From NCBI RefSeq assembly GCF_056746865.1, contig NZ_CM163382.1: a DNA stretch of 64,000 bases; one strand, 5' to 3'. Of the stretch, positions 3,210 to 3,235 are shown in pieces; the first letter of the stretch is position 1; every line of letters begins with the position of its first letter. The position numbers and the translations under genes are program-made. Below the pieces are notes generated by a model. That model saw only the letters and a list, made by a program, of their open reading frames with translations, had not been told where the DNA came from and made no database searches.

Positions 3210-3235
<26 letters not shown>

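Follow-up and report, generated by a model that had tools for sequence, protein, structure and literature searches.

The genes ycjG and mpaA lie tail to tail close to the beginning of the window, i.e. the whole stretch of 64 000 nucleotides of DNA that was analysed, and their coding sequences run into each other on opposite strands (Table 1). The 3′ end of ycjG reads GGC GAA TTG CAT CTT TAG (3218-3235, + strand), and the overlap is in the (123:132) phase, i.e. positions 1, 2 and 3 of the ycjG codons face positions 1, 3 and 2 of the mpaA codons, so that the wobble position of ycjG is the second position of mpaA. A convergent overlap of 26 bp had been claimed in an earlier note on this DNA, and it is borne out by the sequence, by the list of open reading frames and by RefSeq, which gives the same ycjG and mpaA coordinates for strain 118UI (100 % identical) and places ycjG at 1388930-1389895, mpaA at 1389870-1390598 and the 26-bp overlap at 1389870-1389895 in K-12 MG1655. 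Of the 5426 complete E. coli genomes searched with a 171-bp probe spanning the junction, 5414 contained it at an identity of at least 94.7 %. Re-annotation of either stop codon, which according to the same note would remove the overlap, has not taken place; only the start of mpaA was re-annotated (from 262 to 242 aa), which left its 3′ end untouched. The overlap of the coding sequences is thus already in the standard annotation, and the overlap of the transcripts has already been catalogued.

Both reading frames are real protein-coding genes, as indicated by the NCBIfam equivalogs, the solved structure of MpaA and orthologues in 80 species. YcjG matches NF011708 with 673 bits over 321 of 321 positions, and MpaA matches NF007897 with 479 bits, the 237-position profile of the latter reaching residues 1-236 only. 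An annotation artefact, i.e. a wrong stop in one of the genes and no true overlap, is hardly conceivable, given that the reading frame fixes the stops and that both frames are full-length equivalog matches conserved through 80 species; no point in its support was found. With respect to function, MpaA cleaves the tripeptide to yield L-Ala-D-Glu, which is then the substrate of the epimerase YcjG (PMC9928106), in agreement with the earlier claim that the two enzymes act sequentially on murein peptides.

Table 1. Positions of the ycjG/mpaA junction, of associated RNA features and of small RNAs in the window
Feature	Position	Strand	Description and source
ycjG CDS	2270-3235	+	L-Ala-D/L-Glu epimerase, 321 aa, ATG at 2270; ORF list, NCBIfam, RefSeq
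ycjG stop TAG	3233-3235	+	Putative site of ancestral deletion (TGA-G to TAG)
mpaA CDS	3210-3938	-	Murein tripeptide amidase A, 242 aa, ATG at 3938; ORF list, NCBIfam, RefSeq
mpaA stop TGA	3212-3210	-	TCA on the + strand (3210-3212)
ycjG/mpaA shared stretch	3210-3235	both	26 bp; sequence read directly
mpaA codons 236-242 (KDAIRPL)	3213-3233	-	Tail, probably frameshift-derived, antisense to the YcjG C-terminus FTTGELHL
C-rich, G-poor stretch on ycjG read-through RNA	3555-3733	+	C/G up to 1.93; composition scan
C-rich, G-poor stretch on mpaA read-through RNA	2911-3089	-	C/G 1.6-2.0; candidate Rho loading region
p19-captured RNase III dsRNA 21-22-mer pairs in mpaA	3733-3755, 3787-3810		Huang 2020, supplementary file 7
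McaS	18462-18557	-	Rfam, above gathering score
FnrS	21935-22052	+	Rfam, above gathering score
MicC	26865-26980	+	Rfam, above gathering score
RydC	60633-60696	-	Rfam, above gathering score
sok antitoxin RNA	61256-61407	-	Rfam, above gathering score; implies a hok/sok locus near 61.3 kb

Several other features of the window deserve mention. Upstream of ycjG, tpx (1645-2151, - strand) lies between tyrR (60-1601, + strand) and ycjG (+ strand). In published p19 data, dsRNA across the whole tpx CDS is among the top 20 E. coli clusters (S-116), and tyrR-to-ycjG read-through was offered by the authors as one of several possible sources; the case for antisense RNA is stronger at tpx than at the ycjG/mpaA junction. 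On the other side, an intact gene for a 212-aa SDR-family oxidoreductase (4229-4867, - strand) is located between mpaA and ycjY, where K-12 possesses only the remnants ymjC and ymjD, and 5 of the 11 full-length E. coli matches from a spread sample diverge from the window beyond approximately 4069 and carry the annotation ‘NAD-dependent dehydratase’ there. Besides the small RNAs listed in Table 1, the 64-kb window contains no tRNA genes. At ttcA (approximately 23820-24755) there is no adjoining Rac prophage, in contrast to the situation in K-12, and the large ydbA-like autotransporter gene (approximately 36370-42189, 5820 nt) is annotated as intact, while its K-12 counterpart is interrupted by insertion sequences.

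As a convergent overlap, the junction is ordinary for E. coli, where 75 of 663 overlapping adjacent gene pairs are convergent (Huvet & Stumpf, PMC4161906) and the (123:132) phase is the commonest among convergent overlaps longer than 4 bp (PMC2174442). Two of the seven convergent pairs in the first 50 kb of the window overlap, the other being ydbJ/hslJ, with 4 bp. The length of the overlap is not beyond chance either: stops in this antisense phase are spaced approximately 19 codons apart on average, as measured over 38 CDSs from the window, so that the probability of its being open for at least seven codons is 0.69, and a seven-codon run-on is therefore ordinary. As a side note, the overlap of ydbJ (+ strand) and hslJ (- strand) at approximately 31062-31065, the second convergent CDS overlap, is on the published excludon list, as is the smrA/dgcM pair, which is separated by a 20-bp gap (approximately 19348-19369).

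The junction was compared across species using MpaA as the query and one genome per species, which yielded 80 loci, all from Enterobacteriaceae, with alignments by tblastn. Both genes were convergent neighbours in all 79 loci that showed both, and their coding sequences overlapped in 73 of these 79 species. The overlap is 10 bp long (TCAnnnnTGA, with an MpaA of 237-239 aa) in 44 species of Enterobacter, Klebsiella, Raoultella, Kluyvera, Leclercia, Lelliottia, Kosakonia and others, and 26 bp long in 24 species, i.e. Escherichia, Citrobacter and Salmonella arizonae and diarizonae, while overlaps of 4 bp were found in three species, of 33 bp in one and of 47 bp in another (Citrobacter youngae ATCC 29220). 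Five species have a spacer of 88-331 bp, and in one, Citrobacter koseri, ycjG is degraded. Judging by gene calls, the overlap amounts to 26 bp in Pantoea, with an MpaA of 235 aa and a YcjG of 327 aa, to 21 bp in an Erwinia and to 19 bp in Cronobacter, and the tyrR-tpx-ycjG-mpaA-mppA synteny is kept in all three. Taken together, 76 of 82 species of Enterobacteriaceae and Erwiniaceae possess a convergent ycjG/mpaA pair devoid of a spacer, with overlaps of 4, 10, 19, 21, 26, 33 and 47 bp. The conserved trait is the absence of a spacer, not any given overlap length or sequence, and the tail-to-tail abutment dates back at least to the common ancestor of the sampled Enterobacteriaceae and Erwiniaceae. 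In another genome, a 67 %-identical MpaA homologue sits in an mppA-mpaA-tpx arrangement lacking ycjG; MpaA homologues of at most 52 % identity were found on short contigs or had no ycjG neighbour, and the arrangement is not datable from them.

Two of the loci call for a separate comment. In Citrobacter koseri NCTC10786, ycjG seems degraded, its best tblastn segment being 52 % identical and having an early in-frame stop, while mpaA is intact and the 3′-end geometry still matches 26 bp. The mpaA/ycjG locus in a record titled ‘Chryseobacterium sp. 18061’ (CACSKA010000006.1, referred to as L059) is of the Enterobacteriaceae type; its C-terminal tails of MpaA and YcjG are near-identical, and its spacer is closely similar, to those of ‘Citrobacter sp. 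18056’, so that mislabelling or contamination of the former record is probable.

The species with a spacer provide a natural contrast, as all five carry a bidirectional terminator or a REP-like palindrome in it. In four Enterobacteriaceae species (L056, L058, L059 and L061), an insert of 284-331 bp separates the mpaA and ycjG stops and encodes a conserved 39-aa ORF, MVDWE[ED]E.VSTQ..L.KRMIDTVGLV..., with a hydrophobic tail. Beside this small ORF, the inserts of L056, L058 and L059 contain a bidirectional intrinsic terminator, AAAAAAACCCGCC...GGCGGGCTTTTTTTT, while the stretch of the L061 insert that matches the L056-type terminator appears REP-like. In the fifth species (L053), the 88-bp spacer is a REP-like palindrome.

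How the 26-bp state may have arisen can be read from junctions anchored at the ycjG stop, i.e. CTC TGA GGC TGC CAG CGC of the Enterobacter type and CTT TAG GCT GCC AGC GC in Salmonella arizonae. In the comparison of the junctions of 79 species, cttTAGgctgcc of Salmonella arizonae equals ctcTGAggctgcc of Enterobacter minus the G of TGA, and the sole gap in a MAFFT alignment of 24 species falls at this G. The comparison suggests that the widespread state is a 10-bp overlap of the form TCAnnnnTGA with a 237-aa MpaA, and that an ancestor of Escherichia, Citrobacter and Salmonella lost one G, turning TGA-G into TAG. With such a deletion, the 321-aa length of YcjG would have been preserved, and the mpaA frame would have moved by one base following Pro235. 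The former mpaA stop, which is TCA on the + strand, would thereby have gone out of frame, and reading would have gone on to the next stop, located 16 nt further into ycjG, so that MpaA gained five residues (237 to 242 aa) and the overlap grew from 10 to 26 bp. A number of Citrobacter species (WHPRDEAVRS) retain the frameshifted reading predicted in this way, CCT AGA GAT GAA (P-R-D-E). Given the presence of the 10-bp state in numerous genera, we infer by parsimony, on the junction sequences alone, that the change went from 10 to 26 bp; the tails of Pantoea, Erwinia and Cronobacter are unrelated, and these outgroups do not settle the polarity.

Natural variants of the junction occur in Citrobacter. 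In three Citrobacter species, a T-to-A change at the base common to the ycjG TAG and mpaA codon 236 abolished the ycjG stop (YcjG of 328 aa) and created an mpaA stop (MpaA of 235 aa), and the overlap is again 26 bp long, now as an extension of the other gene. This shared base carries a T-to-C change in C. youngae ATCC 29220, by which YcjG is lengthened and MpaA is not stopped, giving 47 bp. It is this evolutionary account, i.e. the single-base deletion, the unconstrained MpaA tail and the hand-over of the stop at a shared base, that is the new element here.

The pattern of variation bears on the tail. Among the 22 species with the canonical 26-bp layout, column variation over positions 3210-3232 summed to 47 at position 3 of the ycjG codons (position 2 of mpaA), to 17 at the shared first positions and to 2 at position 2 of ycjG (the wobble position of mpaA), and past the ycjG stop the periodicity changes at once to the third positions of mpaA. 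Accordingly, the YcjG tail FTTGxLHL is conserved, and the MpaA tails read KDAIRPL, KDAIRRS, KDGVARS, RDEAVRS or KDGVDPS depending on the species. Selection on the shared bases thus tracks ycjG only, leaving the additional residues of MpaA to vary freely; with variation in this stretch obeying the ycjG frame alone, the MpaA tail seems to be under no constraint. Even within E. coli, the single difference between K-12 and the window over positions 3150-3300, at 3214, is synonymous in ycjG and replaces Ser242 of the K-12 MpaA by Leu242.

One could nevertheless argue that the overlap was retained because residues 238-242 of the extended MpaA have a function at the protein level, in line with the 242-aa length being kept in 21 of the 24 species of the 26-bp clade. 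We attach very little credence to this explanation: the second codon positions of mpaA vary freely while its wobble positions are frozen by ycjG, residue 242 is S or L within E. coli, and MpaA is 235 aa long in the three Citrobacter species mentioned above and 237-239 aa long in most genera. In addition, the tail is outside the NCBIfam profile and missing from the E. coli MpaA chain in PDB 5HXD, which comprises residues 1-237, i.e. ends before the last five. There is no sign that the overlap carries a protein-level function for MpaA.

A bidirectional intrinsic terminator is the usual solution for convergent gene pairs. Such an element, present in the L056-type inserts, is absent at the ycjG/mpaA junction of the window: the terminator scan revealed no intrinsic-terminator-like site near the junction, and there is no GC hairpin with A/U tracts at or close to 3210-3235, where the genes leave no space for one. 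A 151-nt + strand RNA around the junction folded no better than shuffled sequences (z = +0.36), and the corresponding 151-nt - strand RNA folded modestly better (z = -1.93), with no U-tract. The junction matched no Rfam family, and the 24-species consensus structure had only -0.94 kcal/mol and zero covarying pairs. A GCATC/GATGC 5-bp palindrome near the ycjG stop was considered as a stabilising hairpin and rejected, being short, unconserved and partly forced by TCA/TGA. Lacking a terminator, either mRNA must therefore extend, without being translated, into the antisense strand of the neighbouring gene.

For ycjG, this read-through appears to be ended by Rho. From +320 to +440 beyond the ycjG stop, the + strand RNA has a C/G ratio of 1.5-1.9, as compared with a 95th percentile of 1.79 in the window, and a Rho termination region of the class ‘antisense mpaA’ has been reported at K-12 1390286 on the + strand (Adams 2021, PMC7815308, supplementary file 2). 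This position corresponds to 3626 in the window, i.e. 391 nt past the ycjG stop and within the + strand C-rich stretch. The DirectRNA-seq reads upstream and downstream of it numbered 47 and 14 without bicyclomycin (BCM) and 58 and 68 with BCM, corresponding to a Rho score of 3.94 (p 7.2e-5; PMC7815308). The region is typical of Rho-dependent termination of untranslated or antisense RNA, with hundreds of others in the same table (PMC7815308). On the other strand, the C/G ratio is 1.6-2.0 at +120 to +220 after the mpaA stop, and the mpaA read-through would probably end by the same Rho-dependent mechanism. The table of Adams 2021 contains no Rho entry for this strand, and no direct 3′-end data were found for the mpaA transcript, the SMRT-Cappable-seq supplements mentioning neither ycjG nor mpaA. 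At the other end of mpaA, Term-seq located an RNA 3′ end at K-12 1390559, equivalent to 3899 in the window (- strand) and 39 nt past the mpaA ATG (Adams 2021, PMC7815308). It lies inside the mpaA ORF and is preceded by the hairpin CGCGCCGAACGCGGCG plus CAUUU, and could reflect premature termination or attenuation at the 5′ end of mpaA.

Published read counts show RNA on both strands of both genes. In the wild-type, sense and antisense reads amounted to 51.2 and 10.0 RPM for ycjG and to 73.9 and 17.6 RPM for mpaA (Huang 2020), i.e. antisense reads reach approximately 20 % of sense reads for either gene, and p19-captured dsRNA pairs map within mpaA (Table 1). By our own rough arithmetic on these counts, the density of antisense-mpaA reads is approximately 42 % of the ycjG sense density, which would roughly correspond to full read-through for approximately 400 nt of the 789-nt mpaA annotation, and that of antisense-ycjG reads is approximately 11 % of the mpaA sense density, which would fit earlier termination. 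Among convergent E. coli operons, 276 of 370 (approximately 75 %) have complementary 3′ ends, which overlap by 286 nt on average (Conway 2014). Expression of ycjG and mpaA is weak (approximately 50-75 RPM, versus 660 for tpx), and both belong to the PgrR regulon, one as ycjG and the other as part of ycjY-ymjDC-mpaA. With a common repressor, ycjG and mpaA are switched in the same way, not exclusively. Given this co-repression and the weak expression, the net regulatory effect of the complementary RNA is probably small.

The excludon concept stems from the Listeria mogR locus, and a functional convergent excludon is a candidate for a regulatory role of the junction. According to this explanation, the lack of a spacer is selected and mutual read-through damps each gene, by collision of RNA polymerases or by RNase III cutting of the mRNA duplex, thereby tuning the amidase:epimerase ratio. 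ExcludonFinder lists ycjG-mpaA among 165 convergent excludons, detected in at least 50 % of 58 RNA-seq samples (PMC12288877), and the antisense reads of approximately 20 %, the dsRNA 21-mers in mpaA, the layout kept in 76 of 82 species and the reported higher synteny of excludon pairs point in the same direction. The transcript overlap expected of an excludon is indeed found here, as far as published data go, and also follows from the overlap of the coding sequences; the listing follows by construction, as the criterion is overlapping transcript boundaries and any pair with overlapping CDSs is called. The locus resembles other convergent excludons (PMC12288877) in its overlapping neighbour transcripts and detectable dsRNA fragments, but shows no sign of exclusive expression: one pathway and one repressor, PgrR, are the opposite of it. 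Moreover, the sense reads of ycjG and mpaA were not raised, but rather falling, in the RNase III mutants rnc-14 and rnc-38 (Huang 2020), a comparison of RPM from single libraries under growth in which PgrR represses both genes. At such low expression, collisions should be rare, and the layout is dispensable, given the five species with a terminator-bearing or REP-like spacer and the unconserved length and sequence of the overlap. We therefore regard a functional excludon as unlikely. The suggestion in the earlier note that convergent transcription into each other's coding sequence could produce antisense interference or coupled regulation thus holds in its first part, as shown by the Rho region at +391, the antisense reads, the p19 dsRNA and the excludon list. 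As to function, the common PgrR repressor and the absence of a rise in the RNase III mutants speak against it; the evidence at hand leans against a regulatory role.

Noncontiguous operons, reportedly described by Saenz-Lahoya et al. in 2019, are another system to which the locus bears a likeness, as ycjG on the + strand lies between mpaA and tpx on the - strand. Here, the mpaA RNA would cross all of antisense ycjG into tpx, so that mpaA and tpx are expressed together and ycjG is repressed, and mpaA-ycjG-tpx is indeed one of three such operons in MG1655 according to ExcludonFinder. This call is automatic once the middle gene has excludons at both ends. Antisense-ycjG reads amount to 10 RPM versus 660 RPM for tpx, the strong C>G stretches on the - strand RNA shortly past the mpaA stop fit early Rho termination, and the well-documented full-length antisense RNA of tpx lies on the opposite strand, with tyrR-to-ycjG read-through as its possible source. 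An mpaA-(ycjG)-tpx operon is therefore very unlikely.

In our view, the overlap is likely to be no regulatory device but a by-product of two convergent genes that have long been packed extremely tightly. The stop codons of the abutting genes have wandered over time, changing the length of the overlap, and read-through gives low-level complementary RNA, as in most convergent E. coli operons. Two observations can be held against this by-product explanation, i.e. that the layout devoid of a spacer spans two families though gene-pair spacing reportedly turns over fast (PMC4161906), and that excludon pairs are reported to be more syntenic than other neighbours (ExcludonFinder, PMC12288877). The long-lived layout could thus reflect selection for transcript overlap. 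Its persistence is also expected under the by-product explanation, because the conserved C-termini are only 8 nt apart and separating them needs an insertion.

As a by-product, the junction fits well among the convergent overlapping pairs described before (Lillo & Krakauer 2007, PMC2174442; PMC4161906), with which it shares the opposite strands, a length below 50 bp and the commonest phase, but its spacer-less state is unusually long-lived, extending over two families. It is also in keeping with the model of stop mutation and neutral boundary drift, in which an overlap originates when a stop is lost or displaced and then changes in length from species to species. In contrast to that model, the ycjG/mpaA overlap would have been extended by a one-base deletion in the stop of the partner gene, not by a point mutation of the mpaA stop itself.

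It is tempting to speculate that the absence of a spacer was nonetheless selected, with antisense read-through at the 3′ ends coupling both recycling enzymes once PgrR repression is lifted. We hold this to be quite unlikely; if true, it would mean that antisense RNA couples two enzymes belonging to a single pathway, and the junction would be a conserved ‘same-pathway excludon’, balancing expression instead of excluding it. Under the preferred by-product explanation, ycjG/mpaA would illustrate neatly how convergent overlaps originate and drift: one lost base may spare one gene and give the other a neutral tail, and one further substitution at a shared base can pass the overlap from one gene to the other.
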